Assembly: GCA_937922805.1 (NCBI GenBank)
Contig: CALAJV010000005.1
Location: 567 to 64,566 of the forward strand
Direction of reading: 5' to 3'
DNA length: 64,000 nt
Source of the DNA: an uncultured Acidimicrobiales bacterium
GTDB taxonomy: Bacteria > Actinomycetota > Acidimicrobiia > Acidimicrobiales > SZUA-35
Shown: positions 3,078 to 56,856 of the stretch, one piece after another
How positions within the stretch are numbered: position 1 is the first letter of the stretch
Layout of the letters: each line of letters begins with the position of its first letter
Notes under the pieces: generated by a model
What the model was told of the DNA's origin: nothing
The model's input: the letters and a program-made list of their open reading frames with translations, nothing else
Database searches by the model: none
Program-made: the position numbers and the translations under genes

Positions 3078-3078
3078 G

Positions 3079-12806: not shown

Positions 12807-12895
12807 GGAGAGGTGACAGAGTACGGCCGATTGTGCCTCCCTGCTAAGGAGGTGTGGGTTTACGCCCACCGTGGGTTCAAATCCCACCCTCTCCG
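12807..12895 (+). tRNA. tRNA-Ser (anticodon GCU), copy 1
   Basis: The acceptor stem is GGAGAGG/CCTCTCC. The anticodon stem is CCTCC/GGAGG with loop CTGCTAA. The long variable arm is GTGGG-TTTACG-CCCAC, and the T arm is GTGGG-TTCAAAT-CCCAC. CCA is not encoded. TACAAT at 12790-12795 could be its -10. Confidence 0.93.
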
Positions 12896-12899
12896 CTGC

Positions 12900-13108: not shown

Positions 13109-14923
13109 ATGTGTAGAGAATTCTGCCATGGTCTTACCTTGAGGCACGAACAGTGCCTAGATCAGATCGGCAGCGGTGGGACACAAACCTGCGAGAACGC
13201 ACCGAGCATTAGTTTCGGCCCAGCTTCCGCCCAAAAGTATCCCTTCCGTAGCTTAGAGATGGCGTCCGACTCACCCAAATCACGGTGGTCTTTCAACCGT
13301 CGACGATTGGCGGTAGCCAGCGCAGCGGCTGCGGGCATGGGAGGGCTGGCCGCTATCGGCGCGATCACCCCAGCGGCGGCGGAAACAGCCGGCGAGTCCT
13401 GCGTCGACGAAGGCGACGGCGACGACTGGGGAGTCAACCTAGAGACGAACGGCGGCTGCCTAATGCCTGGCGCAAATGCGGCCGAGCTTTGCCTCGACCG
13501 TGATGGGGATGGCCGAGGCTTCAACCCAGCACTCAACGAGGTTTGTGATCTACCCGGATCGGACGAAAGATCAGAAGCTCGAGACGAGGCCAACTCGGAT
13601 CCAGACTCTGACGACGACACGAGCTACGACTCGAGCTATGACACGAGCTATGACACTGGTTACGAGACTGAGACCGCCAACGAAACTGACGACCTAGGGT
13701 GGTCTCAGGAGGAGATCGTTGCTAATCCGAAACCATCCGAACCATCACCCGAGCTAGAAACCGGACCGAAAACGGTGGCTCAATTATGTGCTGCGCATGG
13801 AGGTACCGCTAACTACAGCAGCTCAACTGGTGAGTATGCCAAATGCTCGGTCTGCGCTGACCCTCTCCACCTGATCGACGAAGAACTTTCTTGGGCTGGC
13901 AACGGGCCGAATCTTGGCACCGTGGCGCAACAAGAGTATGCGATGGAGTGTTTCGACATTGATCCGGTTTCTGGCGACCGTTTGGCCTGGGGTGAAGAAG
14001 CCAACACCAACCTCGATCACGACCAAACATCACATCGTGGCGTTGAGGAGCCTCGGCCGATCCCAGATAATTCGGAGCGGCCATCGTCGGACGTTGAACG
14101 CAACGAGGAAGACCGCTCTCAACACAACAGCTCGCGCCATCCGGCAGATCTGCTACCGGTTTGGGAGCCAGCACTTCCCGATAGTTTGGCCAACCCGATC
14201 GTGGTGACAGCCCCCGACGGAACACTCGTGCACTACGACCGAAGTTTGGTCCGAGTCGAAACTCCAATGGAAGCCACCGGTCAAGGCCTGTATGTCGCAG
14301 ACCAAATGGGCGACGGGCACGGAATCGTTATTACCGGTCGCAAGACCCCAGTCTGCATTCAGGGAATAGCGAGCGATCCTGACGGTGATGGATACGGCGA
14401 GGAGCACGGAACCGTTTGCTACGCCGGCATGGTTGTGAAACGACCCACCAACCAATCTCCAGAAGGTATCCCTGGCGTAGATTACCTTGCGTTCGATGAT
14501 GAAGGTGACCCTTACTGCCTACCTCATTGGACTAAGAATCTGAACGACTGCGACATGGATCTACGGTCGCACTCTATGAACCAAGCAGACGACGACCATC
14601 TGAACTATGGCGATGAGGACCGACCTCGGATCACACCAGTCGACGGTGGGCTACTTGATTTCAACTTCCACAATGGTCAAGATTTCGGTAAACCGGTTGA
14701 GGGTGATGGCTACAACTCGCTGGCGTTCGATGCCGACGGGAACGCATTCTGTTTCCCTCACCTGACCAAAAACTTCAACGGCTGCGACCTTGAGCTGATG
14801 ATTCACAATGGCGGGCGGACCGAAGCTATCGACAGAACCGAGGATGACGTTACCGGCTTGAAACCAAGCGAGATTCCGAGCTGGAATTTCCCGGACTTCG
14901 CCAGCGCTGACGCTGGTTGGTAG
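13109..14923 (+). CDS. Secreted or anchored Cys-rich protein with DGDG-W-G-V motifs (paralog B of 10623-12647)
   Basis: ATG at 13109 is preceded by AGGAG. It contains an RR-bearing hydrophobic region (SRWSFNRRRLAVASAAAAGMGGLAAIGAITPAAA). Motifs CVDEGDGDDWGVNLETNGGC, CLDRDGDGRGFNPALNEVC and CIQGIASDPDGDGYGEEHGTVC are collinear with paralog A. The internal ATG at 13259 is an alternative start. Confidence 0.7.
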   Translation: MCREFCHGLTLRHEQCLDQIGSGGTQTCENAPSISFGPASAQKYPFRSLEMASDSPKSRWSFNRRRLAVASAAAAGMGGLAAIGAITPAAAETAGESCVDEGDGDDWGVNLETNGGCLMPGANAAELCLDRDGDGRGFNPALNEVCDLPGSDERSEARDEANSDPDSDDDTSYDSSYDTSYDTGYETETANETDDLGWSQEEIVANPKPSEPSPELETGPKTVAQLCAAHGGTANYSSSTGEYAKCSVCADPLHLIDEELSWAGNGPNLGTVAQQEYAMECFDIDPVSGDRLAWGEEANTNLDHDQTSHRGVEEPRPIPDNSERPSSDVERNEEDRSQHNSSRHPADLLPVWEPALPDSLANPIVVTAPDGTLVHYDRSLVRVETPMEATGQGLYVADQMGDGHGIVITGRKTPVCIQGIASDPDGDGYGEEHGTVCYAGMVVKRPTNQSPEGIPGVDYLAFDDEGDPYCLPHWTKNLNDCDMDLRSHSMNQADDDHLNYGDEDRPRITPVDGGLLDFNFHNGQDFGKPVEGDGYNSLAFDADGNAFCFPHLTKNFNGCDLELMIHNGGRTEAIDRTEDDVTGLKPSEIPSWNFPDFASADAGW

Positions 14924-15006: not shown

Positions 15007-15095
15007 GGAGAGGTGACAGAGTACGGCCGATTGTGCCTCCCTGCTAAGGAGGTGTGGGTTTACGCCCACCGTGGGTTCAAATCCCACCCTCTCCG
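15007..15095 (+). tRNA. tRNA-Ser (anticodon GCU), copy 2 (identical to copy 1)
   Basis: The 89-nt sequence is identical, base for base, to 12807-12895. Confidence 0.93.
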
Positions 15096-15102
15096 CTCAA
15101 TG

Positions 15103-33513: not shown

Positions 33514-35316
33514 CTAGCCCAAATTCAGAATCCGAATGTAGTCGATCTCGTAGGTGGCGCCCTGGCTTCCCAACGCTCGGGTGTCGAGCGGGCCCGGGCT
33601 ACCACCGAGGGCAAGATTGATCTTCAACTCCGTAATCGGTTTGTTGAACGGATCCGGATATCCCTGAATGGTGTCGACATGGGTTACTCGGTGCACCTCT
33701 TGGCCGTCTTGATACCACACGAGCACGCCATCTTGACCGTAGTCGAAGCGGAACGTATGCCATCGGGCTGAGAAATACTCCGACAGGTAGTGGCCACCGT
33801 TACTGGTGTGGCCATGCTGACCGTTCGGTTTCGTGTAGTGAAGTGTTTTGATGGTTCGCTTAGGGTCAACGGCTGTCATGACCTCTAAGAAGTCGAGCTC
33901 GCCACCCCGTGGCCAGCCCCCTCCGCCCCAACCCGAAGCCCAAACAGCAGGCCACAAACCGCCTTGGTTGTCGTGATCTGCCGGAGTTAGCTTCACTTTG
34001 AACTCCAACGCCTGGCCTGGTCTAAACGTTACGCCCTTAGTTCTGACCATGCCCGATGTAACTCTTCGAGTCGAACCGTTAGGACAGGTGTAGCTTTCAT
34101 TGAGCGCTCGTAGAACTAGCTTCCCGTTAGCCACCCATACGTTCTCGGGTCGATAGCACTGCAGTTCGTTGTTCCCATCTCCATACGTTGAGTGCTCCTT
34201 TTTCCAGACTGACGTGTTGAAGCTGTTGAAGTTCTCTTCCCAGACAATTCCGGGCGTTGGCGGTTGTGTTGTTGGTGCCTTCGTCGTCGGTGGCCGAGTA
34301 GTTGTCGGCGGCTTCGTGGTCGGCGGCTTCGTAGTGGACGGCTTCGTCGTCGGCGGCTTCGTGGTTGGTGCCTTCGTCGTCGGAGATTTGGTTGTCGGAG
34401 GCTTCGTTGCCTTCGTTCTCGTGGTCGGCGGGCGGGTACTCAGCGTCGGCTTCGTTGTCGGCGACTGGGTTAGTACTGTTCGAGGACGAGTACTTGTCGT
34501 TGCCTTTTCAGTTGCAGCTGGACTTGTTGTTACAGCAGGCGTCGTTTGATTCTGCCTTTTCTTCGCTCTCCGCTCGGTACTACGAACTTGAGCGGCAGAG
34601 ACTGTAGTAGCGGTCTTGGCACTTGAGCGCTGCGTTGCCTTGGCCGACCGTGTTTGCGATTTCGATGTCGTCTCAGACGCGGGCTCAGATGATCGGCCCG
34701 TGGTGGACGACGTTGGTGCGATCGAACTTTGTTGTTTATCTGTCGGCGTTGATTCGGTTGAGGCCGTGTTAGACGTTTCGTCAATATCAACCACTAGCGC
34801 CTGAACCGAGTCAGGTACACTCACCACCGTTGTTGTAAGGGCGGCCAATTCCTCCGTCCGTTGGCCGACAGTGAATTCGACAACATCACCGTTGTCGTTA
34901 TCGCCAGTATCTTCTTGAGAGAAGGCTTTCGCCGAGTATCGACCAGGACGAAGTTCGCCAGAGGGCATGCGGTATGTCCATCGGCCAGATGGTTCGACTC
35001 GAACGCTGAAACGGGCGGGTTTAGATCTCCACCCCTTGCCAGTCCAGAATTCATTAGTATCGATGTTCTGAACGGCCACTTGGATTTGTTTGGCCCCGCC
35101 ATCGAGTCGGGCCGACCCACTCACTACTAAATCGCCACCCACCGCAGAGTTGTCGGTAGGGAAGTCGACTGTCGTTGTTGGCGACTCGTTCGCAGCCAAC
35201 AGCATCGGAATACTGAAACCAGCTCCAGCCACGGCAAACACGGCTAGGTAGATCAGGGCCGAAGGCGAATATCGACGCCTACTCCGACCAAGGCTTCTGC
35301 GGCTATTTAGTACCAT
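33514..35316 (-). CDS. Glycoside hydrolase family 16 (beta-glucanase/laminarinase-like) with N-terminal Ig-like domain and PT-rich linker
   Basis: The GH16 catalytic motif GGELDFLEV is present. The linker reads KPPTTKSPTTKAPTTKPPTTKPSTTKPPTT. The protein has an N-terminal anchor and an Ig-like domain (aa 50-150). Its stop codon abuts the stop of the convergent kinase gene with no gap. Confidence 0.8.
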   Translation of the reverse strand: MVLNSRRSLGRSRRRYSPSALIYLAVFAVAGAGFSIPMLLAANESPTTTVDFPTDNSAVGGDLVVSGSARLDGGAKQIQVAVQNIDTNEFWTGKGWRSKPARFSVRVEPSGRWTYRMPSGELRPGRYSAKAFSQEDTGDNDNGDVVEFTVGQRTEELAALTTTVVSVPDSVQALVVDIDETSNTASTESTPTDKQQSSIAPTSSTTGRSSEPASETTSKSQTRSAKATQRSSAKTATTVSAAQVRSTERRAKKRQNQTTPAVTTSPAATEKATTSTRPRTVLTQSPTTKPTLSTRPPTTRTKATKPPTTKSPTTKAPTTKPPTTKPSTTKPPTTKPPTTTRPPTTKAPTTQPPTPGIVWEENFNSFNTSVWKKEHSTYGDGNNELQCYRPENVWVANGKLVLRALNESYTCPNGSTRRVTSGMVRTKGVTFRPGQALEFKVKLTPADHDNQGGLWPAVWASGWGGGGWPRGGELDFLEVMTAVDPKRTIKTLHYTKPNGQHGHTSNGGHYLSEYFSARWHTFRFDYGQDGVLVWYQDGQEVHRVTHVDTIQGYPDPFNKPITELKINLALGGSPGPLDTRALGSQGATYEIDYIRILNLG

Positions 35317-35512
35317 TCTCTGTTCCCGATTCGTAGCAGTGGAACCGGTTAGCTACCGGGCCCATCAACTACGTCGCAACGAGCCTTCGCTATGTCTCAA
35401 AAAGAACTCAAAAAGGTCAAAAAGGTGGCAGCTGACACACAGCGCACCGAGCTCAGCAATGGTCGTTGTCGACTAAACTCGAAGGACAAAAACTACAAAA
35501 CAGAGGCGCCCC

Positions 35513-36175
35513 ATGACCCGAATCAAGAAACAACAGCCGAAAACGCTCATCGCGCTGGTTGTTCTATGCCTGTTTGCTTCCGCCTGTGGCTCCACCAGTG
35601 ACGGTGCACTCGACGCAGGCGCAGAGGCCCAGAGTGACGAGACAACCGAGGTCGGCGACGACGCCGAAGACATGGACGACATGGACCACAGCAACGACGA
35701 CATGGACGACATGGACGACATGGACCACAGCAACGACGACATGGACGGCATGGCAATGGGTGACGCTGACGCCACACCGGCCAGCGAAGTCGTCGGGGCC
35801 GACATCACCAAGGCCTCATTCGCCTTGCTTGATTCATCACCCGAAGGCTTCGAGCAACTCGATGGCGTAGCCACCATTGCTCGCTATGAAGGAACGACGA
35901 TAACAATTGAGTTCACCGGACTCCAGCCTGGCTTGGATTACATTAGCCACCTCCACGCCGGCTCATGCGACGAGAGCGGCGGTCCACACTTCAAGTTCGA
36001 CCCGGATGGCGCCGATGCACCACCAAACGAAATTCACTTGACCTTCACTTCGACCCCCGAAGGCCTGGGGTTCATGACCGCTGAAAACGACATGGCCGTT
36101 GCTGATGAAGGTCAATCAGTTGTCGTACACCTGGCCGGTCAGATGAGCGACAAAATCGCCTGCGCCCAGCTCTGA
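35513..36175 (+). CDS. Lipoprotein with Asp/Met/His-rich repeats and a Cu/Zn-superoxide-dismutase-like (possibly Cu-only SodC-like) domain
   Basis: The lipobox is LVVLCLFASAC-GS. The repeats read DDMDDMDHSNDDMDDMDDMDHSNDDMDGM. The SodC-like pattern is GLQPGLDYISHLHAGSC...GGPHFKF...VVVHL...KIACAQL. The Cu-site His residues and the disulfide Cys pair are in place, and the Zn-loop ligands are not obvious. Confidence 0.5.
   Translation: MTRIKKQQPKTLIALVVLCLFASACGSTSDGALDAGAEAQSDETTEVGDDAEDMDDMDHSNDDMDDMDDMDHSNDDMDGMAMGDADATPASEVVGADITKASFALLDSSPEGFEQLDGVATIARYEGTTITIEFTGLQPGLDYISHLHAGSCDESGGPHFKFDPDGADAPPNEIHLTFTSTPEGLGFMTAENDMAVADEGQSVVVHLAGQMSDKIACAQL
35671..35755 (+). repeat. In-frame tandem repeat encoding the DDMDDMDHSN units
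   Basis: The unit catggacgacatggaccacagcaacgacga (35671-35700) is repeated with an extra catggacga insertion at 35701-35739 and has a degenerate tail. Confidence 0.8.
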
Positions 36176-36201
36176 GAGGTTTCTCAATAGGTCAGACCGT
36201 A

Positions 36202-36238
36202 GCTACGCCCGGTGAAACCACCGGGCGTAGCCTTTTTG
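36202..36238 (+). terminator. Intrinsic terminator after the SodC-like gene
   Basis: A perfect 13-bp stem (gctacgcccggtg with caccgggcgtagc) has a 4-nt loop (aaac) and is followed by ctttttg. Confidence 0.85.
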
Positions 36239-36287
36239 ATCGCTTCGGCGAGAGCCGTTGCCTAGGCGACCAATCCTGTTCAGATTG

Positions 36288-38504
36288 TTAACAGTGCCGA
36301 CCTGACCGTTGAAACGGTCGAGCAGTTCCTTGATCGCCGTTGTTGCGATCAGCGGGGTCGTCGTACCAAGTGTGAGTTCGCGGATTGTATAAGCCAAAGC
36401 CGGTGCCGACCCGCGAGTCGAAGTGCCACCAGGCCGATGCCGCACCGTGGCGGCCAACCGAGTTGATAGCCCACAGTCGATCACAGGCCAAATCTTTGGC
36501 GTTGCCCCAACCAACCCAGCCCTTCACCTGGGGGTGCGCGTTGAAGAACACCCGCGAGTGTCCGTATTCGCCGATGAACAATGGCATATTCCCGGCCTGA
36601 GCCACTCTGTCTTGCTCGGCAAAACCCTCGGCCATGTTGGCGCGAGCGATGGCTCGAACTGCCGGGTCGGAGGTACCGCAATCCGGCTCAGCGGAACGTG
36701 CTGCGACTTCCTCCCAGCTGAATAGTCGAGTCGGGTCCGGAACAATCTTGTCTGATACCGCATAGCAGCCTCCGGTGCGCCAGTTGGCGGCACTCGTACC
36801 AGTGGCAGTTCCGCGGCGCCACTCATCGCGACCCGAGAGATCTGGGTCGCCGAAGCCGTCGTCATCGGCGTCGAAATCAATCTCGTCTCCTCCGCGAGTG
36901 CTCGAATCGGCCTTCGCTGGTAAGCCAGTGTGATAACTGTGGGCCGACCAGATGAGGTTTGGATACTTCGACGTTCCGTCCTCAGTTACTAGACCAGCTC
37001 GAACTGCGGTCGACTTTGAAAGCTGCGCACCGAAGAATCCGCTAAGAATCAGAGGCTTGTCGTTATCGATGGCCCGCAAATTGGGAATCCACTCGTTGAA
37101 TAAGCTAATGATCTCATCAGTGCTTTCGTAAGGGTTGTGGTTCGGCGGATGGGGTTCATTCATCAGTTCGAATGCGATGATATTTTCGAACTGTTGCGAC
37201 CAGATCAACATCCTTTGCAGGTAGTCGCCCCCAAGAGTGGCACCGGTCTCAGTCCGATAGCTAACGACTTCGAACATGTCATCGTTGTCATAGGCGTGTT
37301 GGAGGTCGCGAGCCGACTTAGCTTCATCCCAAGCCCATTGGGGTAGCCAGTAGCGCCTAGTTTCATTGGCCCCAGCGTGCATAGGGTCGAGAACTACACC
37401 TACCCCTGCGTCACCCAACCGCCGGATCAGATCAGCTACTTGACGCATCCGTGGGTCAGCGTTCAACTGAGCCTGAGTTTGCGGTCCGGTTGGTTCAACG
37501 TCATCCCAGTGGAGTGGCATCCGAACGACGTCGAACCGGGTGGCCAGATCGGCCACGGTCTGGTCGTCCACCGAGTAGCTTCCGTTCCAGAATGCGTCAC
37601 CGCGAAGACTCACTGCCTTCCATAGGGCTGGTTGAGTTCGATCTGAAGATCGAACAATTTCCCATCTCCCATCTACGTTGGCCGTTTGATACCACTCGTT
37701 GGTCGGCCCTGCTGGCGGTTCCTTCGACGCCGATTTGGTTTCTCCGCACCGACGAGGCTTTGAAAGGTCTTCGTTCTTCCCAACGACCGTCATCCGGTAA
37801 TCGACCTCAGCGTCAGGCAGCAAACTGGTATCGGTCCAAATAGCTTGTGTGGCCGGAACTCGGGTGGCGCCAGACCACGACCCGCCGTCAACTCGCCGCT
37901 CGATGATGATGGCTGCCGCCTCGTCTTTGTGCGACCGGGTTTTGGTCAGCGCTGCTGAACTACCGTCGCTGGTAAAGGTGGCCCAACACGAGGCTACTAG
38001 CCGAGGAACCGAGAATGGAGGCAGAGCGGCCGACTCCCCGCAACGCTTGGCCGCTGATCGGATTTCGTTCGCACCTACGACCTTCATCCGATAGTCAAAA
38101 TTAACTCCAGGCCGCAAGGTCGAGTCGGTCCAGACAGCCTCCGTCGGACCGAGGCGGGCCGCCCACCACCACTTGCCACCATCAGCTCTTCGCTCAACGA
38201 TTATGGCCGACGCCTTGTCGTTGGAGGAACGAGTTCTGGTCACCACAACCGACTCCCCGTCACGGCTGAACGTTGCCCAACACGAAGCCACCGGGCGAGG
38301 CCGCGAAGACAAGGTTGCTTCGGCCGAAGAACTTACCAAGACCGAGACCGAGCTGCACAAAATTGCCGCCACTAATCCTGCTGATGCCAACCTCCGACAA
38401 ATACCGATCGACCGTGCCGCAAATTTCACTCGCCCTGATTTCACTGCGCCTGATTTCACTGCACTTGATTTCACTGCACTTGGGCTCACTGCACCTGATT
38501 TCAC
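36288..38504 (-). CDS. Glycoside hydrolase family 5 (cellulase/mannanase-like) with two N-terminal FN3/Ig-like repeats
   Basis: GH5 acid/base motif FELMNEPH and nucleophile motif LFIGEYG are present. A duplicated N-terminal domain reads VASCWATF[ST].DG.S...T.TRS...[DK].A.AIIVERR.DGG.W. The start is uncertain because the first 25 codons lie in a 15-nt tandem repeat. Confidence 0.75.
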   Translation of the reverse strand: MKSGAVSPSAVKSSAVKSGAVKSGRVKFAARSIGICRRLASAGLVAAILCSSVSVLVSSSAEATLSSRPRPVASCWATFSRDGESVVVTRTRSSNDKASAIIVERRADGGKWWWAARLGPTEAVWTDSTLRPGVNFDYRMKVVGANEIRSAAKRCGESAALPPFSVPRLVASCWATFTSDGSSAALTKTRSHKDEAAAIIIERRVDGGSWSGATRVPATQAIWTDTSLLPDAEVDYRMTVVGKNEDLSKPRRCGETKSASKEPPAGPTNEWYQTANVDGRWEIVRSSDRTQPALWKAVSLRGDAFWNGSYSVDDQTVADLATRFDVVRMPLHWDDVEPTGPQTQAQLNADPRMRQVADLIRRLGDAGVGVVLDPMHAGANETRRYWLPQWAWDEAKSARDLQHAYDNDDMFEVVSYRTETGATLGGDYLQRMLIWSQQFENIIAFELMNEPHPPNHNPYESTDEIISLFNEWIPNLRAIDNDKPLILSGFFGAQLSKSTAVRAGLVTEDGTSKYPNLIWSAHSYHTGLPAKADSSTRGGDEIDFDADDDGFGDPDLSGRDEWRRGTATGTSAANWRTGGCYAVSDKIVPDPTRLFSWEEVAARSAEPDCGTSDPAVRAIARANMAEGFAEQDRVAQAGNMPLFIGEYGHSRVFFNAHPQVKGWVGWGNAKDLACDRLWAINSVGRHGAASAWWHFDSRVGTGFGLYNPRTHTWYDDPADRNNGDQGTARPFQRSGRHC

Positions 38505-38659: not shown

Positions 38660-39127
38660 TTGTACCAGATGGACAGGACTGCTGTTCCGAATTCGATGTC
38701 TGAAAATTCACCTCTAGCTGAACTACTAAGTCGGCATAAAGCAGCAACACAGCTGGGCGACGCCAAATTGGCCCGACTCTGTTGCGAATTCGCTGACGAC
38801 CCACTGTTTGTTCACCGCTCCAACATCCGTAACTGGGCGACCGGGCAGTCCCGGAGCGCCCAGAACTGGCGTCAGATCGCAACGCTAGCTACCGTGCTCG
38901 GCCTCGACCGCGAACAAGCCAACGAGTTACTCGACGCCGCTGGTTGTTCGTCGCTAGAACAGATCCAACGTGCGCTCAAACCCGAAGACGTTCGATTCGT
39001 TGCCCATTGGCCCGTCCCTTCGACACCGGAACCACCGCAGGACCAGCAACCAAAACCAAACTACGAAGAGGAGCTTCGCTCCTTAGCTCCCGAAGGGTCA
39101 GACCGACCGGGGAACCACCGTCACTAG
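38660..39127 (+). CDS. XRE-like helix-turn-helix protein; probably the N-terminal part of a gene interrupted by an in-frame TAG
   Basis: The HTH-like segment is LAELLSRHKAATQLGDAKLARLCCEF...VHRSNIRNWATGQSRSAQNWRQIATLATVLGLDREQANELLDAAG. The ORF ends in TAG at 39125-39127, in the same frame as 39230-40081. Alternative starts are ATG 38669 and 38696. Confidence 0.55.
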   Translation: MYQMDRTAVPNSMSENSPLAELLSRHKAATQLGDAKLARLCCEFADDPLFVHRSNIRNWATGQSRSAQNWRQIATLATVLGLDREQANELLDAAGCSSLEQIQRALKPEDVRFVAHWPVPSTPEPPQDQQPKPNYEEELRSLAPEGSDRPGNHRH

Positions 39128-39229: not shown

Positions 39230-40081
39230 TTGATAATCGGCGGCTTCGCTGGTCTTCGCTTGCGAAACGGAACCGGTCAAGCACCGACCGGTGATGAGAA
39301 TGCAAACGCTGAACAATCGACAGGGACGGCATCTTCGAACGACTCGCCTGTTTCCAACATCGCCAGCCCGTCTCCTGGCTACCTCTCATCTAGTCAACTG
39401 ATCTTCGCCGGGCAATCAACCTCGGAGATGGGCGTGAACGACGTATTCATAACCATCAACGACATGTCGCGCAACCGATACTGGAGTGATGAAGATCAAC
39501 AGTGGCAAGAGACCTACGACAAAAAGAAACACCAATTTCCGTTTGCCGTATCCCAGTCCGGTGGAACTGACGTTGGTTGGTCATACCAACTTCCAGTTGA
39601 GTTAGAACCAGGCCGATATCGGGCTCGGGTTTGGTCCCGACGCGCCGATTTGATAAACAACGAGTTGGACGGAAGGTTTGTCGAATTTATTTACCTCAGC
39701 GAGAATCCTGAGCTCGCAGCGGCAACGGCACCGATCGAATCGACAATTACCTCACCATCGGAAGGCGACTCAATAGAATCTGATCAAAACTTGCTCGGCT
39801 CACTAATCGTTGAAGGGTCGACTAGCAGCAATATCGGCGTCGATGAAATCGTGGCTATGGTCTTCGACCCGAACCGCAGACAATACTGGAATCCAGACGA
39901 AGCAAGTTGGCAAGATACATTTGTCGGGTTTGAAATTCCGATCGACGAGAATCAAGATCAGGCGTCGTGGCAATACCAGCTAACCGGCCTCGAGCCCGGC
40001 AGTTATTCGGTGAGCGTGCGAGGCGCGAACGCCACTGGGATTGAAGAGCTCGGCCCGACCGTCTCGTTCACCGTCGACTAG
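39230..40081 (+). CDS. Protein with two Ig-like domains; the TTG start splits a predicted TM helix, so it is probably the C-terminal part of the 38660 gene
   Basis: Two domains are alignable with the kinase and GH16 Ig-like domains (..YW...W......W.YQL...LEPG.Y...V). The in-frame upstream sequence back to the TAG encodes RPIRTIAAVIGILTLLIIGGFAGL and has no ATG, GTG or TTG. Confidence 0.55.
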   Translation: MIIGGFAGLRLRNGTGQAPTGDENANAEQSTGTASSNDSPVSNIASPSPGYLSSSQLIFAGQSTSEMGVNDVFITINDMSRNRYWSDEDQQWQETYDKKKHQFPFAVSQSGGTDVGWSYQLPVELEPGRYRARVWSRRADLINNELDGRFVEFIYLSENPELAAATAPIESTITSPSEGDSIESDQNLLGSLIVEGSTSSNIGVDEIVAMVFDPNRRQYWNPDEASWQDTFVGFEIPIDENQDQASWQYQLTGLEPGSYSVSVRGANATGIEELGPTVSFTVD

Positions 40082-40128: not shown

Positions 40129-43100
40129 CTAATCGAGGGCGATTACCGCTATCTCGATAGGTCGATAGGCCCTAAGAGCGAGCGCTCCTCGTAAGGCGGC
40201 CACATCTGTATTGGCTTGCCCGACAACTTCGAGCCTCATCCCACTACGGAAGCCCACTGCATGCAAGTACCCAACTACTTGGTCAACCGAGAGAATCGTC
40301 GGTGTTCCGGTCCAATCGGTTTTGACGAAGTTCCCTGCGCTGTCCCGGTCGATGACGAGCACGAATGTGTTCGGGTCAGCGGTAGTTTGGTAGTCCACCG
40401 TGGTTAAGTTCAGCCCGCGACCGAAAATTCTCTCAGAGGGTGTCAGTTCTTGAACAACAATGGTGTTGACCGGCAACTGTCGCAGTGCTTCGAGTATTTT
40501 CTGTCCATCTTGATCTAGTTCGACGCTGACGTTGAGCAGTTCGGCCTCGGCACGGTTCGTCTGGTCGACAAAAGCCTCGGCATCGACCAACCCAGCTGGT
40601 TTCGCTCCCGCTAAGTCCTGCCAGTCCAAATAAAAGTTGTCGACGCGAAGCGCCAGCTGTTCGTAGGCAGCAAGCCATGACTCAGCGGCCCACAGGTTCT
40701 TGTCGTCAAGAATCGTTTTGAACTCGAGCATGACTGATCGATTGCGATCGTTGGCTGCTGCCAGCTTCGGATACAACTCGGTAGGAGTCGGCCCGTTGCC
40801 AGGCCCTTCATTACGCAGGCCGACCTCGGTTTCAGGCCCATCAATGCCGACTATCCCAAACCCATCAACAGCCTGACGATCGATATCGACGAAGTCTAGA
40901 TCGGACGCATCCAACCCAGCCTCCAACAAACCGACACCGAGAAAGCGAAGCGCTGCCTCAGTATCAGATTCGAACGCGAGGGCTCGTCCCTCTAATCGAA
41001 GCTCCATGCCTCGAACATACCCAGCAGCAACGAGGCGTCGAAGAAGTTCAGCGGTGGGAAGTGCCCGTAGTTGACCACCGGCAACCGACTCAACAAACGA
41101 ACCGTCAACACCTGCATCCACCATCAGCACAAAGGTGTTTGGCTCAGCGCTCGTGATACCGAGTCGGCTCGTTAGGTTGAGTCCTCGGCCAGGAACTTCA
41201 CCACCTGCCACCACAAATTCAGGTTCGAAGGTCGAGAGTGCTAAACCGGCTGCCGTAGGCTCGTTGTCGGTCGCCCTTAGGTAGTCGTCAATGATCTGCT
41301 GGCCTCGTTCAACCAGGCGGCGGCCCTCGGCTTCGATCTCAAGCCCATCAACAGTGTCCGACGAAGATGCACTGCCTAGGTCCGGATCTTTGCTGGTGGG
41401 GTACGCCCTGAGCTTGGACAAGTAGTCGGCGGTTTCGACCCGATACTCATCGGTTTGACGGCGCAGCATACTAAAGCTTATGGCACCGACATTTTGAAGT
41501 AGCTGTTCTAGTTGGCTACCAAGGTCAGTAGCTTGACGGGCCAGTACCAAACCATCTTCATACGTAAACGATCCAGTTGAGTTCGACGCCGTATCACCGT
41601 CCGGCGGTTCGGGGGTGGTCGGCGTGTCGGTACCATCATCGTCGACTACCACCGCAGTTGGATCCGAGTCGTTGGCCGCGTTTTGACCCGGTTGCGGAGA
41701 GAACGGCAGCGTGCCATCTCGTTGAACAATTTGCCCGGGCTCAACGCCCGCATCGCCCAAGGCGTCGGCAATATCGAACACGTACTGGACCGCTGTTGGG
41801 CCGAGTGGCCGGGGTATCTCGAGTATCATTCCTTGATCAAATCTGGCATCAATGATCGCGTTGGCTACTTGCAACGCTGTTAACGTCTGCCCGCCGAAGT
41901 TTGCGTACGCACCGGTTGGCGTTAGGTCAGCACCGAACACGAAGTAGTTGCTTTGATTACGAGTCGAGAGCGTTGTGCTCCCAAGGTTTAGTCCTCGCCC
42001 TCCCACTACACTGCCGGTTCCGAGCGGCTGAACGCCTTCGACGGTGCCGAGAGGTCCGGGTTGACCGTCGTTGGCGGCCAGATCACCGATTTGTTGCTCG
42101 CCCACGTTTATGGTTTGGACACTGAGTTGATCACCGTCGAGCGCCATTTGAAACTGCAGCTCTGCCACTATCGCTTCATCGACAATGTCGGTGAAGACTT
42201 CAAGGTTCATGGTCGGCTGAAATCCGGCTGCTCGAATTTCGTCGGCTAGTTCGTCGGCCGTTAGGACCACATCGGGGCCGTCCGGCTGAGCTTTGAAGAA
42301 GAGGCCAGCATCACTGGAGCTTGCTACGACCACAACAAACACATTCGGATCATCGCTGATACGGGCCCGCTTGGCGGTGAGGTTCAAGCCACGCCCAGCG
42401 ATCGGAACGAACGGAACAAGAGGTTGGCTGACTATTTCGACTGGAACGTGGTGGCCTATTTCGATGATGATCTGATCGATTTGGGTATCTACATCTTTGA
42501 CTCGAGCCGAAAGCGCAACCAGTTCATCTGGAGTCCTCTCAGACACCTCACGGACTTCTCCGGCTAGTTCGGCGATTTCGTCGACTATCAGTTGACGGTT
42601 GGTGGCAAACGCTCGATTACTAAACAAGTTTTTGGATCGCAACAGACTGTCTAGCTCCGCAATTCTTGTCTGCACAGCAAGAATTTCGGCGGCTGCATCA
42701 ACCGCTCGACCGGTCACGAAGGACGGTACCAAATCTCCGTCAAAGCCTCGTCTCCTCAATTCAGAAAGTAGCTCTGCGTCTGGACCGCCGCCACTCGAAA
42801 TTAGGATGTCCATATCCAACCTCAGACCAGCATTGAGAAGGCGACTAGCCAACTCACCCACCGACAACGGAGCGCTGCCAGTGCCTAACTCTGAAACGTA
42901 GTTCCCGTTTTCAACGTCAACCACGAGAACAAAGATCTCCATCGCTGTGCTGGTTAGATCAGGTTTGTTGGTGACGTTGATTCCTCGACCTTGAATATCA
43001 CCTTGAGGTGGTATCGCTACCGCTTTGAATCGAGCCGCTGGAGGAGGGAGAGAAGCCGAAGTGTTGCTACGGAGTTCGAGCAAATAATCTTCAACGTTCT

Positions 43101-55100: not shown

Positions 55101-55953
55101 CCAAAAGAACGCCTAGAGCGACCGTGTGTTCTGTACAAACTGTCAACGGAGCTAGTTCTTCTTCGACTGCCCATAACGCTGCTTCAACTCGTTTGCGGTC
55201 ACCGCTGGAGTCGGACGCGGTGGTTAGAAGTCGTTCGAGCTCGACGATCAGATCCTGAAATCGTCGAAACTTCTGCTCACCCAATCGTTCGAATATTCGG
55301 TCCCGAAAAATCTCAGCCTGAGTTGGAGCAGGTGCCGGTTCCGGTTCCGGTTCGTCAATCTGTCCGGTTCCGATTGTAGTTTCTGGCGCAACCTCGGTTG
55401 GTTGGACAGTCGGATTCGGCGCGCTCTTTACTCCGGAAAGAACTTTGCAGGTAGCCCCATTTTCCCAGCCGAATCCGTCTCCATCTGGATCGGACTCGTT
55501 TGCCGAACAGTCGGGTGGACCACCAGAATGTTGGGGCGGATTTTGAGTCGGCGTGGCGCCACTACCGTTTTCATCAATACCGACATCTTGATCGTCAGCG
55601 GCCTGATCGTCAGCGGCCTGATTGCCAGCATCCTGGTTGTCAGTATTTTGGCCGCCGGTGTTCTCATCGACTGTTGGAGATTCGGGGCCACTATCGGAAA
55701 CGGAGCACGTCTCCCCGTTCTCCCATCCCCATCCATCACCGTCGGGATCAGAAGTAGCTGACTGACACTCGACCGCAGCTTCAGAAACGTTGCCTTCAAC
55801 TGCTACCAATACCGCAGACGTCACCAACAGGACCGAGAAAACGCAGAGCACTCGACGGACACCAAAACGCGACGTCGCCACGCCCCACCAAAGTCCTATC
55901 GGTCTGCGGACGACAGCCCACAAGAATCCGAACGTCCACAACAAACGCCGCAC
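40129..55953 (-). CDS. Giant (5,274 aa) membrane-anchored multidomain protein; polymorphic-toxin/adhesin-like, family unknown
   Basis: This is an uninterrupted 15,825-nt ORF. GTG at 55953 has GGAG 6 nt upstream. The domain layout was read from the translation and is given in the findings. Positions were cross-checked against the DNA at aa 2378, 3646, 3786, 4921 and 5172. Confidence 0.85.
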   Translation of the reverse strand: MRRLLWTFGFLWAVVRRPIGLWWGVATSRFGVRRVLCVFSVLLVTSAVLVAVEGNVSEAAVECQSATSDPDGDGWGWENGETCSVSDSGPESPTVDENTGGQNTDNQDAGNQAADDQAADDQDVGIDENGSGATPTQNPPQHSGGPPDCSANESDPDGDGFGWENGATCKVLSGVKSAPNPTVQPTEVAPETTIGTGQIDEPEPEPAPAPTQAEIFRDRIFERLGEQKFRRFQDLIVELERLLTTASDSSGDRKRVEAALWAVEEELAPLTVCTEHTVALGVLLADEISLSYATNNGTNLGDDLAEQLWDLVNTLDSEGKIQVDQDACPAPQTANSYPDCTGSEDPDGDGFGWENNSSCRIVAQPTTPDQLPEVPGSDLNVVVADDSPENPGSVVDDQSNLDPASLMDELVAASETPLADANETQPSSVGDSGGTMAVEAPPNPGDYPVCLNDSSGGFGWEQNMSCLAVAAPRVVTSVCAIEQWAGAGFDFGRIANSWCSIQPESAQSNDITATDPVAPEPTPPTSVDPAQVATQPGGVDPSDVDSSGVQSSDFDSLIDPELVSPGPSGDVAATEPEPRQQANSEFTGGAIESPDVATTEVVSPELSDLAEEVTKVSAGSGDLPVCVEEQSGAIGFEQGMSCLALSYEPETPQTCVVDEWSAAGFTHGRVNGRWCTLAGQPALPNLGSVVDENLAASETPDEPQAKLDPTNPDSTVDATTAGESGVEDGLDAVPEQAATNNNLLGSEILQVGTAGDMPICLVAMSGETSVEQGMTCLPLTFSPTTTQPCTVPAWVGAGFEQGRQGGRWCNVVKAASPVESGQGIGVVQGLSVSYFSYAGWIEWDAPVNGSPTRYEVLRDGEYLATVVPGSTNRFLDKSFTTGRTHLYTVSAVDDSGERPIVGAPVTVPFFYDADQGFVHVDIHNQMLEGGSAGDPLTDEPVTTSSVVDDGFSTDAVRPVQGLTASQTAFVNEIVLSWTVSSEGPKPTEFEIVRDGQPVGSVDIPFYYDTDISPGRSYTYTVSPVVVEGTEIRSGLGLSVQTDPVVPIPQSITAGAATGLTVTQLPGSNNIEVTWDAPTGWAQGFIDSYQVLRNGAPVGVTIEPDFAATGDFPYPGRSFIDNSVPVGAALGYSVVARTIRDGSVVEGQATSLAVITPIDSSTVGVTFNEGTENESQGVATSPVSSQQVVPQQFVDAVALALDISGADAERLGSQLYVIYTLRDDLTVEFRDLLRVFNTELANFDRRDLSISDQEFAASTSAEIADLLLRRLTAPLQGTNIGVQIEGYGLAPVQNWLRSGGESADQLSTLIAESLELLQATQAAIDALPAGNKPSSNALKNVETPALRIGRALLNGTRTDPTNVRMMYRDITTGYRRTVGVRVDDGDIGSQIRYQDAPSTPFSTLFNASSEIERAQAYGIEPGQWEVAKPFLQIHYDTYQYRKANHGWGKIRSRLTSLVKIGFTLVLATTFGPGVAGALGLKGATAAVVGGAIGGTASTLFATGGDWEAAFKGGLIGAAAAGLKHLASLKDLTTSQKVMKALLESSVAGGSGSFEDRLLAAFANNFVDGMGAKIAKMADTSLFTGELLETILASAVASGGDWDKITRAAETYVLNAIGGEVADFTTDVLGDQWNDLGKTLTGFASYAAASNGDESQAKDFFFRHVMPQMEWGAGGKFTEWYGSKDEIYTGIGKAILVIVNQTLATGGTMEALEKSVESYVYGLAGDFASNKLVAAFTTDGKTPSVVTQFASLLDTYISNGYDPNVQRNALTREGSRIAANALSEVLPNCNSVSVEFTNERLINNLISARNADEFETELENTLTDILSPNSAYHDCAGPEDEDQLSFVDSECPVELSTTELSGVGAGFPGSSRRVAGSATRRFQIERIDPDSSGEVCQTPELFRLALLNLTPAQVIDQVSVFEQTLQAGTEPVELVTFSSDFVDYRLVVAGGANFGQVEELQESGVWYKTGIQISLARDEEGSIERFGDSTKSADGRADPGDPIENLQGFMNWLRSLSSSDNDLNDRFDVSTDRIIARPPKNVDVFSPKVVFQDFRIVTSQTGDRTIGTIQQRQPGSSTWYSPSGGRMTIFWSGDKITGFGTPTFGGNSIGEVLATIPTDQISNQITETTENGVAVITVDQFPNQRIHVADGFGLVHAWGSWGNQWYPTENFVKVNYDAAGVIIGFTHLGANTASVNADLFGLFLSSTIRTWTLNDSWGELGQRLRGCGVAIKQAWDEIIGILGDLPQAVADLVAGLKQMQAQIAASPEGFFNNIIASVLDADQLEQFKQEYGDAAGVARWSGRVMCSIILAIVFEVAIGVVGVVVAKAIMKKVSSGDATPSDPVDLVEDGEDLAIGVDDVCDDCIEEDGGYAETLEPGSSIYARIEDGEFIFNITSRTPGNGRLLFNRAFDALNNISGPIRAVIGEWGSGSNLTSFNAALRAGITPEDAARTTFTGQVAGERGFDRAEIVASAPSGSPGDYDHVRVRFFQGEASESASDADPGTVPTKSFSRLRATRDDAVDLTVGFKDAAWKLGIDHPELTAEIEQFEAAVDNFVLEVDALTDTELIPPVQQRGDVLLANGQEITARYLAITDPDAAPDAGDADVDDAEVSPGLAVSPAARLAELERQAVDFIDSAQSLFDRISNNASTGGPGAAPALLVQADEFQAAAAAFQIDVAQLANTPTNIAELDRLAGVSDELLKTQDQLLEDSSELADGAGNGASTAATRYEDLTDNGSGIVASKNLQGIVELNFLPGNKPAAEYYKEALTALAPVEGIQVVWTKGGAGELDTFNSELKSGNSYEEAVAATEAARLAAENGFEHSHIVFLDGENVGEHNTAIIVFDRNPAEPYVDAADQVTPGQAALALRLEQLNTDFVGLEQLDLFITDLIETKDTSDFEQLVNEVEAFQSEVARFVAEYGVTNPSDITTIDRFSATIEDLRTRGRALLLQLGYLELDPDASEFGVQLDLGPEMPDNVVATVSIDGELEVTDGKGSDLAASIDDGELVFGMLAAGDVTGRQLFQIAFDWANEWNGPVLTILGDWGPDLPSNLNSFNAAIEAGMSQELAALATATGRLASNNGYGVVEILTTDPAGGPGPYTEVSVRYSRGRMDVSDAESMSVPLFARLRSMKETVEELSTGLQTRLATKNIDQSSTLADEVEQFAVSANSYINVAAPADDAGALTNLVDRGKALVDEAERLGTQIDELADSGVGPDKTAENTDTVEPTGSPDSDDILCDPAGCVDGNGQFVAQLENKSKISGRVGDSGLIKFDVTSVKKGDGGRLFEAMLAGLRSSSGPINGIKGVWGLTSTNTEVFNSSVLAGSDLNEAALSTPTGKWAARAGFGRAEVDLESLEGARGSYTGVDVYFWPDGYQVDRTDSGGSENSDNSEAGTNESDGVRYEADNEDGAGASGWKDRNGYVHLTIEAVERSGTEYFEEALTALAPVNGVRATWTMRMPANLDTFNAELRQGKTHEEAAAATFTGKLSARNGFTEVHIVDVEGEPGAYRRAELAFDRTPAEAPFTPRLRESQADLPASAEIARLRQYAGQLTDLDAEIVRQLILTDDTPSVNLAKRVDQFQLEVWTYRYSVLDIDDPESVDIDVLESEGEQLLSAGEGLLQEVNYRRRTAADRADSGDTDGATTGEPDCNSFPTGTLVRMADGSLRPIEHVAAGDRVLAGDPTTGLFADEVVLAQWSHVDDGVMGTVGLTDGSQVSATDHHLFWVASDGSWVELEDVLPGDYLLTPAGVAKVASVAMSNPAPTLVWELDTSGPDTFTVHTGTRDVLVHNAPCNIDDFMKENTATSLEINDGQGSYVTGKIDAGILTIGMRANGRFTGTELFARLMEWAGDVTAIRGLWGSTLPTNLETFKAGIRAGLTPEQAAASTFTGQMALDYGYGDIRNVSPLPSSRSFEEALSVRVLFYRGEFDDTPENTAAVNDLSHLRSSASKLDLVAQELATLVGQKDLAGDPALITKINQFVATAKTFVVDIDSLTELDQVAVIGQRADDLLDSGRDLLVEAQQLSDRNDTNAGGAQEPLESSEASTGEVVATIGPLGRELDPLSHMPPGATVYRGGVNLTARPVDLEPGRFVVGGAVDSNGSLLNRLGQPLDAIGFADLASEMFRAGFRSGSDLELPNPGFGNERALEDRVKAALAELGVTPGNVVFRDQPGNQSQSGPAAVLDDPLATNSATNGTESPTENLSISPWAEADELSNHSGEAISEIVEILRRVYGPRDNWPEEFDELSQAFWMWHDAYHEDLEVLAQHEPSQPLPNDIAELVETGREIRENVEDYLLELRSNTSASLPPPAARFKAVAIPPQGDIQGRGINVTNKPDLTSTAMEIFVLVVDVENGNYVSELGTGSAPLSVGELASRLLNAGLRLDMDILISSGGGPDAELLSELRRRGFDGDLVPSFVTGRAVDAAAEILAVQTRIAELDSLLRSKNLFSNRAFATNRQLIVDEIAELAGEVREVSERTPDELVALSARVKDVDTQIDQIIIEIGHHVPVEIVSQPLVPFVPIAGRGLNLTAKRARISDDPNVFVVVVASSSDAGLFFKAQPDGPDVVLTADELADEIRAAGFQPTMNLEVFTDIVDEAIVAELQFQMALDGDQLSVQTINVGEQQIGDLAANDGQPGPLGTVEGVQPLGTGSVVGGRGLNLGSTTLSTRNQSNYFVFGADLTPTGAYANFGGQTLTALQVANAIIDARFDQGMILEIPRPLGPTAVQYVFDIADALGDAGVEPGQIVQRDGTLPFSPQPGQNAANDSDPTAVVVDDDGTDTPTTPEPPDGDTASNSTGSFTYEDGLVLARQATDLGSQLEQLLQNVGAISFSMLRRQTDEYRVETADYLSKLRAYPTSKDPDLGSASSSDTVDGLEIEAEGRRLVERGQQIIDDYLRATDNEPTAAGLALSTFEPEFVVAGGEVPGRGLNLTSRLGITSAEPNTFVLMVDAGVDGSFVESVAGGQLRALPTAELLRRLVAAGYVRGMELRLEGRALAFESDTEAALRFLGVGLLEAGLDASDLDFVDIDRQAVDGFGIVGIDGPETEVGLRNEGPGNGPTPTELYPKLAAANDRNRSVMLEFKTILDDKNLWAAESWLAAYEQLALRVDNFYLDWQDLAGAKPAGLVDAEAFVDQTNRAEAELLNVSVELDQDGQKILEALRQLPVNTIVVQELTPSERIFGRGLNLTTVDYQTTADPNTFVLVIDRDSAGNFVKTDWTGTPTILSVDQVVGYLHAVGFRSGMRLEVVGQANTDVAALRGALALRAYRPIEIAVIALD
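40216..43767 (-). repeat. Six diverged protein-level copies of unassigned module family 2 (G-R-G-[LI]-N-[LV]-T signature; giant ORF aa 4063-5246)
   Basis: The copies lie at nt 43549-43767, 42784-43014, 42187-42423, 41806-42033, 40984-41223 and 40216-40443. The shared pattern is GRG[LI]N[LV]T........P..FV[LV]VVD....G.F........L[ST]...[LV]......G[FY]..GM.LE[VL]. Confidence 0.75.
44191..48822 (-). repeat. Six diverged protein-level copies of unassigned module family 1 (giant ORF aa 2378-3921)
   Basis: The copies lie at nt 48490-48822, 47425-47751, 46636-46971, 45853-46185, 45412-45723 and 44191-44547. The shared pattern is G.L.F.......G..LF..A...L....GP[IV]..I.G.WG....NL..FN..[LI]..G.[ST].E.AA..T.TG..A...GF...E[IV]. 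Confidence 0.75.
44596..45018 (-). other. Hint (Hedgehog/intein-like, BIL/PT-HINT type) domain, giant ORF aa 3646-3786
   Basis: The 141-aa segment starts with Cys (CNSFPTGTLVRMADGSLRPIEHV..GDRVL) and ends in VLVHN. It is followed by Ala-Pro-Cys, so there is no +1 nucleophile. Confidence 0.8.
52489..53478 (-). other. Three FN3-like domains (giant ORF aa 826-1155)
   Basis: The pattern is typical of FN3, for example VQGLSVSYFSYAGWIEWDAPVNGSPTRYEVLRDGEYLATV...HLYTVSAVDDSG. It recurs three times. Confidence 0.65.
53527..55767 (-). other. Cys-bracketed DPDGDG[WF]GWE motifs (x3) and three ~170-aa Cys-containing repeats (giant ORF aa 63-809)
   Basis: The short motifs are CQSATSDPDGDGWGWENGETC, CSANESDPDGDGFGWENGATC and CTGSEDPDGDGFGWENNSSC. 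Three longer repeats have the form GD.P.C....SG..G.EQ.M.CL...C.[VI]..W..AGF..GR....WC. Confidence 0.8.
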
Positions 55954-56136: not shown

Positions 56137-56856
56137 TTACAGGACTTTAGTGAGCTTTGATTCGGCCGGATCGCATCGAAACTCCGCCCCATCTTGAACT
56201 TCGGAAAGAAAAGTTGAGATCTCGGAAGAGCCGGTAACGAACGATCTACGTTCGCTCTCGCTCGAAGCAGCGAAAACCATGCCAACTAGCTTTCCGGCAG
56301 AATTGTAGATCCCAGCTCCGCTATCCCCTTGTTGGGTTGGGGCGTCAATAATGTAGCCAGCACGACGAGAACGAGTCGGTGAACGGACATCGTCGGTCTC
56401 GATGATGGTTCGATCCAGAACGGTGAATGGGATCGAACCGCTGGTAGCGCCGCCGACGAGATGACCTTCATCACCAACGCCAAGTACGCCAAAGTTGACT
56501 GGGCCTTGGATGGGGAGAGGGAGAATCTCCTGAACGTCGATTAATGCAAGGTCTCGCTTCCAGTCATACCCTCGGACCGTCCCTACTGCTGACGACGAGC
56601 CAACTTCGACCGAGACGCTACCGGCCCCGGCGACGACGTGAGCGGCGGTAAGTACTCGACTAGGACCAATCAAAATTCCCGACCCGAGGGCTCGACTGGT
56701 GTCGCCGCAAGCAGTAGTACGAAGTACGACTGCCCGATTGGTGGCCTCGGCCGACGCCTGAACGTCGGCGGCCAATAAGCCGGCGGCTGGTGGCAGATGA
56801 GTTTGTTGTCGGCCCGACCGACCGGCTCCACCGACGGCTAACAACGCTCCCACCAC
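56137..56856 (-). CDS. Trypsin-like (S1 family) serine peptidase
   Basis: The catalytic triad context is LTAAHVV (His), RDLALI (Asp) and QGDSGAGIY (Ser). In-frame sequence upstream of the GTG start continues a hydrophobic helix (FGTTLLGLLA-VVGALLAVGG) without any ATG, GTG or TTG, so the true N-terminus is uncertain. Confidence 0.8.
   Translation of the reverse strand: MVGALLAVGGAGRSGRQQTHLPPAAGLLAADVQASAEATNRAVVLRTTACGDTSRALGSGILIGPSRVLTAAHVVAGAGSVSVEVGSSSAVGTVRGYDWKRDLALIDVQEILPLPIQGPVNFGVLGVGDEGHLVGGATSGSIPFTVLDRTIIETDDVRSPTRSRRAGYIIDAPTQQGDSGAGIYNSAGKLVGMVFAASSESERRSFVTGSSEISTFLSEVQDGAEFRCDPAESKLTKVL

Follow-up and report, generated by a model that had tools for sequence, protein, structure and literature searches.

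A 5,274-residue polymorphic-toxin-type protein with six Ntox62-like domains, predicted in an uncultured Acidimicrobiales bacterium

The window analysed here, 64 kb (64,000 nucleotides, nt) of contig CALAJV010000005.1, contains on its minus strand one giant open reading frame (ORF) of 5,274 codons and 15.8 kb. It has no internal stop and begins with a GTG codon preceded by GGAG 5-6 nt upstream, as the initial annotation had described. An in-frame TGA lies directly before this GTG, so the N-terminus cannot extend further, and ORFs in other frames over the same span reach at most 239 amino acids (aa). The product is modular, with an N-terminal carrier followed by six copies of a 129-aa unit (module 1), a Hint domain inserted before the sixth of them, and six copies of an 86-aa unit (module 2); features and coordinates are listed in Table 1. 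A conserved metabolic gene of the window is 76-82% identical to its counterparts in metagenome-assembled genomes of the Acidimicrobiales, and the host is therefore considered an uncultured member of this order (Actinomycetota).

The giant ORF is a real gene. Three independent metagenome contigs, located via the upstream protease gene, are 99.8-99.98% identical to the window without a frameshift, and one of these, a Logan contig of 19.3 kb (run ERR9287628), has a called product that is likewise 5,274 residues long. Continuity of the frame, which was to be checked against independent assemblies, is thus upheld. Strain variation within the gene consists of substitutions only, in a comparison that rests on near-identical assemblies. 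Long internal DNA repeats are absent from the ORF, which makes repeat-driven misassembly unlikely. Two other contigs, L002 and L003, terminate at one shared base inside the gene, window position 50779. A strain-variable junction at about residue 1725 was considered for this common end base and rejected: L003 runs on into Illumina adapter sequence (AGATCGGAAGAGC), and with adapter at the contig ends the shared break is an artefact of the library or of the assembly.

Both sets of six modules were recovered with internal hidden Markov models (HMMs), almost exactly where they had first been placed. Module 1 is unrecognised by Pfam, NCBIfam, PADLOC, PHROGs and PDB sequence searches; PADLOC gave no matches, PHROGs gave one Hint-type match only, and PDB sequence searches with the module-1, module-2 and family profiles gave matches at chance level only. 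In a word-indexed search the six-copy alignment of module 1 found no protein and a 42-sequence family alignment found three. The relatives surfaced because an exhaustive HMMER search was made, in which phmmer compared residues 3802-5001 (one module-1 copy, one spacer and five module-2 copies with their linkers) with 1.84 billion representative proteins. Besides the query itself, 74 proteins were found, every one of them aligned to the module-1 part only. The domain is separated from the C-terminus by 0-8 residues in about 60 of these 74 proteins, whose lengths range from fewer than 100 to 2,579 aa. Their other domains include PT-HINT (7 proteins), RHS (2), ALF (2), eCIS_core, T7SS_signal, DUF6443 and CBM_35, and some are named by NCBI as 'polymorphic toxin-type HINT domain-containing' or 'ALF repeat-containing' proteins. 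Source organisms are Pseudonocardiaceae, Saccharothrix, Dactylosporangium and Streptomyces, among others.

One of the matches, WP_219446590.1 (E 1.5e-24 with the six-copy HMM and 5.8e-6 with copy 6 in phmmer), is listed as Ntox62, of unknown function, in Supplementary Table 2 of Zhao et al. 2024 (PMC11062931). Since this match is a listed Ntox62, module 1 is assigned by sequence to the Ntox62 family. The initial annotation had been unable to place the protein in any described family; for module 1 this no longer holds, while module 2, the spacers and the carrier remain without one. With module 1 as Ntox62, residues 3646-3930 of the giant protein hold a canonical HINT+Ntox62 cassette in which 15 aa separate the two domains.

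Gene contexts of the homologs point to toxin loci. In four of six contexts the gene is closely followed by a gene of 85-95 aa, which overlaps it in three cases and lies 12 nt downstream in one. These four small genes are mutually homologous (BLASTP 2e-10 to 0.015) and bear the signature of a cognate immunity gene. In Supplementary Table 1 of Zhao et al. 2024 (PMC11062931), UmbC proteins end in HINT.1+Ntox62 and are encoded beside an 83-aa 'Imm131' gene; from size and position alone, the 85-95-aa family would correspond to Imm131.

Five of the six Ntox62 copies in the giant protein look functional. Copies 1, 3, 4, 5 and 6 keep the residues conserved in at least 80% of 36 outside homologs (G, W, N, F, AA, TxTG, G), and because these residues are retained at an overall identity of only 26-42%, the copies appear to be functional rather than decaying.

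Several database relatives have arrangements of their own. P0005, on a 3.6-kb contig (ENA ERZ1426841), has the layout Ntox62 - Hint - Ntox62, each Ntox62 followed by the same 'PGPSYYSQWLPETVSA...' tail, and its gene overlaps a preceding 607-aa ORF. From P0005 it seems that arrays of Ntox62 and Hint occur elsewhere too. P0002, P0013, P0026, P0041 and P0042 are proteins of about 325 aa with a signal peptide and two tandem Ntox62-like domains that carry a W-[ST]-G variant of TFTG, outside polymorphic-toxin architectures; in P0041 (287 aa) the second copy is truncated. In Saccharothrix obliqua (L087:7264-8460) an ALF+Ntox62 toxin gene is followed by a 142-aa gene and then by a gene with trypsin and ricin-B-lectin domains, an order that fits the UmbC/UmbD/UmbA order of umbrella toxin loci.

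The Hint domain before the sixth module-1 copy, proposed from the first inspection of the sequence, is confirmed by Pfam PT-HINT (E 5.8e-9, above cut-off). Its closest solved relative is 8w20_A, the UmbC1 chain of the S. coelicolor umbrella particle (E 3.4e-23), followed by the bacterial intein-like (BIL) domain 2lwy (E 6e-9). The residues of the active site are present: Cys3646 as Cys1, a T-D-H-H block of the TxxH type, and a terminal His-Asn3786. The sequence around the terminal Asn reads VHN-A-P-C, with Ala at +1 in place of the Cys, Ser or Thr nucleophile of splicing inteins. As the terminal His-Asn3786 precedes Ala, the domain should cleave rather than splice, consistent with a non-splicing BIL/PT-HINT domain.

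Upstream of the arrays lies the carrier, several elements of which had been predicted correctly. Hydropathy supports the N-terminal hydrophobic anchor, the Gly/Ala-rich block, which is moderately hydrophobic, and the strong transmembrane helix, each close to its predicted place. The Cys-bracketed DPDGDG[WF]GWE motifs match Pfam CBM_10 above cut-off, and the three Cys repeats contain four Cys apiece. Of the 33 cysteines of the protein, 20 fall within residues 61-820 and none beyond residue 3789. Evidence for the three FN3-like domains is weaker than had been claimed: the region contains an internal repeat detected by BLAST, an RGI_lyase match below the Pfam cut-off, and PDB matches to a DUF3472 protein and to FN3 at E 3e-4 to 0.9. 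The three beta-rich repeats were likewise only partly substantiated, their mutual similarity being marginal, and this region has no database match.

The carrier core has no Pfam or PDB match. Its sole relative in the databases searched is P0079, a 993-aa paralog from the same sample that is 38% identical over 670 aa (E 2e-128), and no orthologs of the core were found in scans of GTDB species genomes and JGI metagenomes. P0079 consists of a signal anchor, two CBM10-like motifs and the helical/glycine-zipper core, lacks the toxin part, and ends where the beta-rich region of the giant protein starts. With two members in the databases searched, the carrier is, as judged by sequence, near-unique and without a described family.

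Table 1. Predicted features of the giant protein and the adjacent protease gene, with window coordinates (nt) and supporting evidence.
Feature	Residues (aa)	Window coordinates	Strand	Support
Giant ORF, GTG start, 5,274 aa		40129..55953	-	ORF calling; equal product length in independent assembly
Hydrophobic signal/anchor, Arg-rich stretch including RR before it	30-57	55783..55866	-	hydropathy peak 2.5; conserved in paralog P0079
Cys-rich, putative surface-binding region	63-811	53521..55767	-	Pfam CBM_10 E 1.6e-8; self-BLAST; paired Cys positions
CBM10-like motifs	63-83, 149-169, 328-359		-	Pfam CBM_10
Three four-Cys repeats	445-501, 621-677, 755-811		-	self-BLAST; Cys positions
FN3-like beta-sandwich repeats	826-1155	52489..53478	-	weak: BLAST internal repeat, sub-cut-off RGI_lyase, PDB matches
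Conserved carrier core: helical region, Gly/Ala-zipper block (1456-1525), GGDW-containing region	1189-1833	50455..52389	-	common to P0079; hydropathy
Beta-rich region, weakly repeated units	1895-2195	49369..50271	-	pairwise z 4.1, 3.2, none
Strong transmembrane helix	2298-2329	48967..49062	-	hydropathy peak 2.9
Ntox62-like copy 1	2369-2497	48463..48849	-	internal HMM; family-conserved residues kept
Ntox62-like copy 2	2726-2852	47398..47778	-	internal HMM; degenerate: N to E, TG to AA, two G lost
Ntox62-like copy 3	2984-3115	46609..47004	-	internal HMM; conserved residues kept
Ntox62-like copy 4	3247-3377	45823..46215	-	internal HMM; conserved residues kept
Ntox62-like copy 5	3398-3523	45385..45762	-	internal HMM; conserved residues kept
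PT-HINT / bacterial intein-like domain	3646-3786	44596..45018	-	Pfam PT-HINT E 5.8e-9; PDB 8w20_A, 2lwy
Ntox62-like copy 6, 15 aa past Hint	3802-3930	44164..44550	-	internal HMM; phmmer; conserved residues kept
Span of six homologous helical spacers of ~100 aa		43870..48465	-	leave-one-out HMM 24-41 bits
Helical spacers	2497-2598, 2612-2720, 2851-2960, 3113-3213, 3527-3631, 3926-4028		-	leave-one-out HMM
Six orphan 86-aa alpha/beta modules (module 2) with non-homologous helical linkers		40189..43770	-	self-BLAST, internal HMMs
Module-2 copies	4062-4144, 4314-4400, 4512-4600, 4644-4726, 4914-5003, 5170-5255		-	internal HMMs
S1 serine protease gene, adjacent, co-oriented, upstream		56137..56856	-	Pfam Trypsin_2; PDB 3k6z

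The segments between modules fall into two groups. Nine of the eleven inter-module linkers had been thought to share one motif; this is true in part. On the module-1 side, six helical segments belong to one robust family. The four linkers on the module-2 side are not detectably related to these six or to one another (1-6 bits; hhalign probability 2.5%), and a single linker family spanning both arrays was rejected. Spacers adjoin the C-terminal end of Ntox62 copies 1, 2, 3, 5 and 6; copy 4 has none, and copy 1 has two, the spacer at residues 2612-2720 following the first. One spacer of the six, residues 3926-4028, was part of the phmmer query and has no outside homolog among the 1.84 billion proteins.

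Module 2 is an orphan. It gave no Pfam lead even at E 10, copies 1-5 have no homolog in the exhaustive phmmer search, and the whole array has no tblastn match in plasmids or phages. An AlphaFold2 model of the module (predicted local distance difference test, pLDDT, 77) has no significant fold match in PDB or BFVD. By its position, module 2 might be guessed to form another family of warheads, or else to have an accessory or neutralising role.

The predicted fold of Ntox62 looks like a trimmed GNAT core. The AlphaFold2 model of module 1 (pLDDT 88; predicted TM-score, pTM, 0.80) has the topology of three strands, helix, strand, three helices and two strands. In a Foldseek search of the PDB its 50 best matches are without exception GNAT acetyltransferases, the 92-aa mini-GNAT AcrVA5 among them, at E of about 2e-3 and probabilities of up to 1.0, with TM-scores of only 0.35-0.51. 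The predicted core topology resembles that of GNATs, among them the toxins TacT/AtaT and AcrVA5. Module 1 differs from them in that the model lacks the N-terminal beta1-alpha1-alpha2 arm of GNATs and contains an inserted helical segment bearing TFTG, the most conserved motif of the family. GNATs bind the pyrophosphate of acetyl coenzyme A (acetyl-CoA) through a Q/R-x-x-G-x-G/A motif at the start of helix alpha3. The Ntox62 family has T-P-x-G-x-x at the equivalent strand-helix junction, with G-x-G only in copies 1 and 4. The closest approach to a GNAT sequence profile is the match of one family member to Acetyltransf_CG at E 0.11. Acyltransferase activity of Ntox62 is on this modelling a lead rather than a finding.

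Directly upstream of the giant gene lies a co-oriented S1 serine protease gene, whose best PDB match is 3k6z, the membrane-associated protease of M. tuberculosis (Rv3671c/MarP-type; E 6e-16). Its His, Asp and Ser motifs are present by eye and it has no lectin domain, unlike UmbA, whose trypsin-like domains are non-catalytic; it was therefore rejected as an UmbA-like partner. It had been proposed to compare whether homologs keep the protease and helix-turn-helix (HTH) neighbours, but the link is unsupported: the sole paralog, P0079 (L089:5677-8658), has an unrelated gene neighbourhood, and a conserved one cannot be claimed.

Other genes of the window were noted in passing. A convergent gene at 39230-40081 (+) encodes 283 aa without a Pfam match and contains two internal repeats, 'RxYWxxDEzzWQ[ED]T...YQL...LEPGxY'. 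It follows a gene at 38660-39127 (+) for a 155-aa protein with sub-threshold HTH_31 and DUF4332 matches, and no link between either gene and the giant gene could be shown. Beyond these two, downstream of the giant gene, two genes at 33514-38504 (-) encode a 738-aa protein with two N-terminal repeats of about 110 aa and a GH5 cellulase domain, and a 600-aa protein that combines a Pro-rich, extensin-like stretch with a region weakly similar to SKN1/KRE6 glucanases; like the CBM10 motifs of the giant protein, they fit a polysaccharide-surface lifestyle. Farther away, identical tRNA-Ser(GCT) genes at 12807-12896 and 15007-15096, each followed by a similar hairpin, flank a 604-aa ORF without a Pfam match (13109-14923), which may reflect duplication or insertion at a tRNA site.

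The reading preferred here, at a probability of roughly 60%, is that the giant ORF encodes an exported, membrane-anchored polyprotein of polymorphic-toxin type, composed of the carrier, the Ntox62 array, a Hint site and the second module array. Polymorphic-toxin logic had been suspected from the outset and is supported by the PT-HINT domain, by the position of module-1 homologs at toxin tips and by the immunity-type genes at four of six loci; the remark that the layout is not the classical single-tip one proved equally sound. The traits of polymorphic toxins in the sense of Zhang et al. 2012 (PMC3482391) are found in part. There is an N-terminal trafficking signal, with an Arg-rich n-region before the hydrophobic stretch at residues 30-57, and the protein is most likely exported by Sec or Tat and membrane-anchored. 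A pre-toxin processing domain, PT-HINT, lies just upstream of Ntox62 copy 6, the place in which Hint domains are given a toxin-release role in that paper. The Ntox62 domain is shared among PT-HINT, RHS, ALF, eCIS and T7SS proteins; here no copy of it is terminal, and the last domain is the orphan module 2. Neither a cognate immunity gene nor an adjacent gene of the Imm131 type was found in the window.

By analogy with such systems, cleavage by Hint would release toxin parts that are then delivered into a target. Its Cys-rich CBM and FN3 part would bind the polysaccharide-bearing surface of the target, and the Hint domain would cleave at its ends to yield a C-terminal fragment of Ntox62 copy 6 and the module-2 array. 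A protease, for instance the S1 enzyme encoded next to the giant gene, may cut the remaining Ntox62 units free, or these may act tethered; the Ntox62 domains would serve as toxic warheads. In the least secure step, Ntox62 might be an acyltransferase that uses acyl-CoA to modify an essential target in the cytoplasm of the recipient.

Several points weigh against this reading. Only one of the six Ntox62 copies follows the Hint domain, the other five being upstream of it, and no copy is C-terminal, the reverse of the rule for this domain elsewhere. The strong transmembrane helix could be a stop-transfer segment, in which case the whole toxin array would stay in the cytoplasm of the producer. The gene on the 3' side is convergent, no same-strand gene lies downstream, and the HMM of the 85-95-aa immunity family found nothing in a six-frame translation of the window. 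Module 2 has neither a homolog nor a fold match, and its role is a guess. As for the acyltransferase step, the link to GNATs is at fold level only, no GNAT support came from Pfam or PDB sequence profiles, and the CoA pyrophosphate-loop motif is only partly present.

Comparison with known systems places the giant protein nearest to the HINT+Ntox62 toxins, which comprise UmbC of Streptomyces and its relatives (PMC11062931) and Rhs- or T7SS-borne proteins. It shares with them the toxin family and the order of HINT then Ntox62, at a gap of about 15-20 aa, and the nearest solved Hint is that of UmbC1. It differs from them in possessing six Ntox62 copies instead of one, none C-terminal, in the orphan array that follows, and in having no Imm131-type gene nearby. 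Unlike umbrella toxins, it has no ALF match and no UmbA or UmbB neighbours, the adjacent protease being MarP-like. Among known stalk repeats, RHS, FilH, ALF and tail fibre gave no Pfam or NCBIfam match in the ORF. Zhang et al. 2012 (PMC3482391) described giant proteins of actinobacteria in which several toxin domains occur together with processing peptidases, for example SACTE_5178 of 13,652 aa. Like the present protein they are actinobacterial, thousands of residues long and equipped with several toxin-type domains, but they mix toxin families (ART, caspase, lethal-factor peptidase, MCF1-SHE) where the present protein repeats one sixfold and adds an orphan domain, and no sequence relationship to them was found in Pfam or in the exhaustive phmmer search. 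MARTX toxins follow a similar logic of a large secreted protein with an effector array and an internal autoprocessing domain (PMC3482391 and established knowledge), but in the giant protein processing would be by Hint and the modules are homotypic. As a kind, giant multi-toxin proteins of actinobacteria with Hint processing have been known since 2012 (PMC3482391); new here are the homotypic sixfold Ntox62 array, the private spacer family, the orphan sixfold array, the near-unique carrier and the lack of a recognisable immunity gene.

The alternative that survives best, though still unlikely, is a concatenated toxin-antidote polyprotein, in which the spacers or the module-2 array would neutralise the toxins in cis in place of an Imm131-type gene, and extracellular proteolysis would arm the warheads. 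The spacer begins 0-4 residues past the end of the domain in five of six Ntox62 copies, which is the position of the stop codon and overlapping start of the 85-95-aa helical immunity gene in canonical loci. There are as many Ntox62 as module-2 copies, no separate immunity gene was found in the window, and polyimmunity proteins are a known concept (PMC3482391). Against it stand the irregular spacing, with no spacer at copy 4 and two at copy 1, and the possibility that the six-and-six count is a coincidence. Homology of the spacers or of module 2 to the canonical immunity family was considered and is unsupported (hhalign probability 0.5% or less: 0.1 for the spacers, 0.5 for the module-2-side linkers and 0.1-0.5 for module 2); this comparison is compatible with an analogous immunity function. 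In a more general form, and with considerable doubt, each tandem toxin unit may be fused to a private neutralising or chaperoning domain, either a spacer or a module-2 partner, whose in-cis inhibition replaces the immunity gene and is lifted by Hint or a protease at delivery. If this were true, module 2 would be an unseen toxin-partner or warhead family without relatives among the 1.84 billion proteins.

It is quite unlikely that the protein is instead a MARTX-like multi-effector toxin whose target is a eukaryote (an alga or a fungus, for example) or another non-kin organism, with CBM10 and FN3 parts that bind a cellulose- or chitin-like wall, a pore formed by the glycine-zipper core and modules acting as effectors. 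A producer without the target would need no immunity, in keeping with the missing gene, CBM_10 is a cellulose- or protein-binding module, and the GH5 cellulase and glucanase-like genes lie nearby. The combination of an effector array with an autoprocessing element, and the multi-toxin giants of actinobacteria (Zhang et al. 2012, PMC3482391), would suit it as well. Ntox62 is elsewhere paired with an immunity gene and borne by antibacterial systems (Umb, Rhs, T7SS), however, which implies a bacterial target. No RTX repeats and no inositol hexakisphosphate (InsP6)-activated cysteine protease domain were matched in the ORF by Pfam or NCBIfam, and twelve modules share only one processing domain.

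A giant surface adhesin or envelope scaffold, whose toxin-derived and orphan modules were co-opted as inert structural beads or as binding domains, is improbable. The beads-on-a-string layout with helical spacers, the loss of conserved residues in copy 2, the want of an immunity gene in the window, the toxin-free carrier paralog of 993 aa and the secreted tandem Ntox62-like proteins of about 325 aa outside polymorphic-toxin contexts would all suit such a scaffold, but five of six copies retain all family-conserved, presumably functional residues in spite of their divergence, and the Hint active site is intact. Finally, an assembly artefact or a decaying pseudogene merely resembling one ORF is extremely improbable: the source data are metagenomic and two contigs break within the gene, but the breaks are explained by adapter, the 19.3-kb contig yields the same product, long internal repeats are absent, strain variants contribute substitutions only, and 5,274 stop-free codons at 56% G+C would be unexpected without selection.

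On its own the giant ORF opens no long-standing question. The preferred reading, that of an exported polymorphic-toxin-type polyprotein, poses the problem of how six Ntox62 copies are tolerated by their producer without a recognisable immunity gene. The orphan 86-aa domain and the helical spacer family are candidates for new toxin-accessory functions, and the trimmed GNAT-like fold, if the model is right, would be the first structural lead for Ntox62, a family carried by the umbrella toxins of Streptomyces. Should the array indeed serve as toxins, it would show that a polymorphic-toxin locus can evolve by amplifying a single warhead family in frame, as well as by the usual exchange of one tip.

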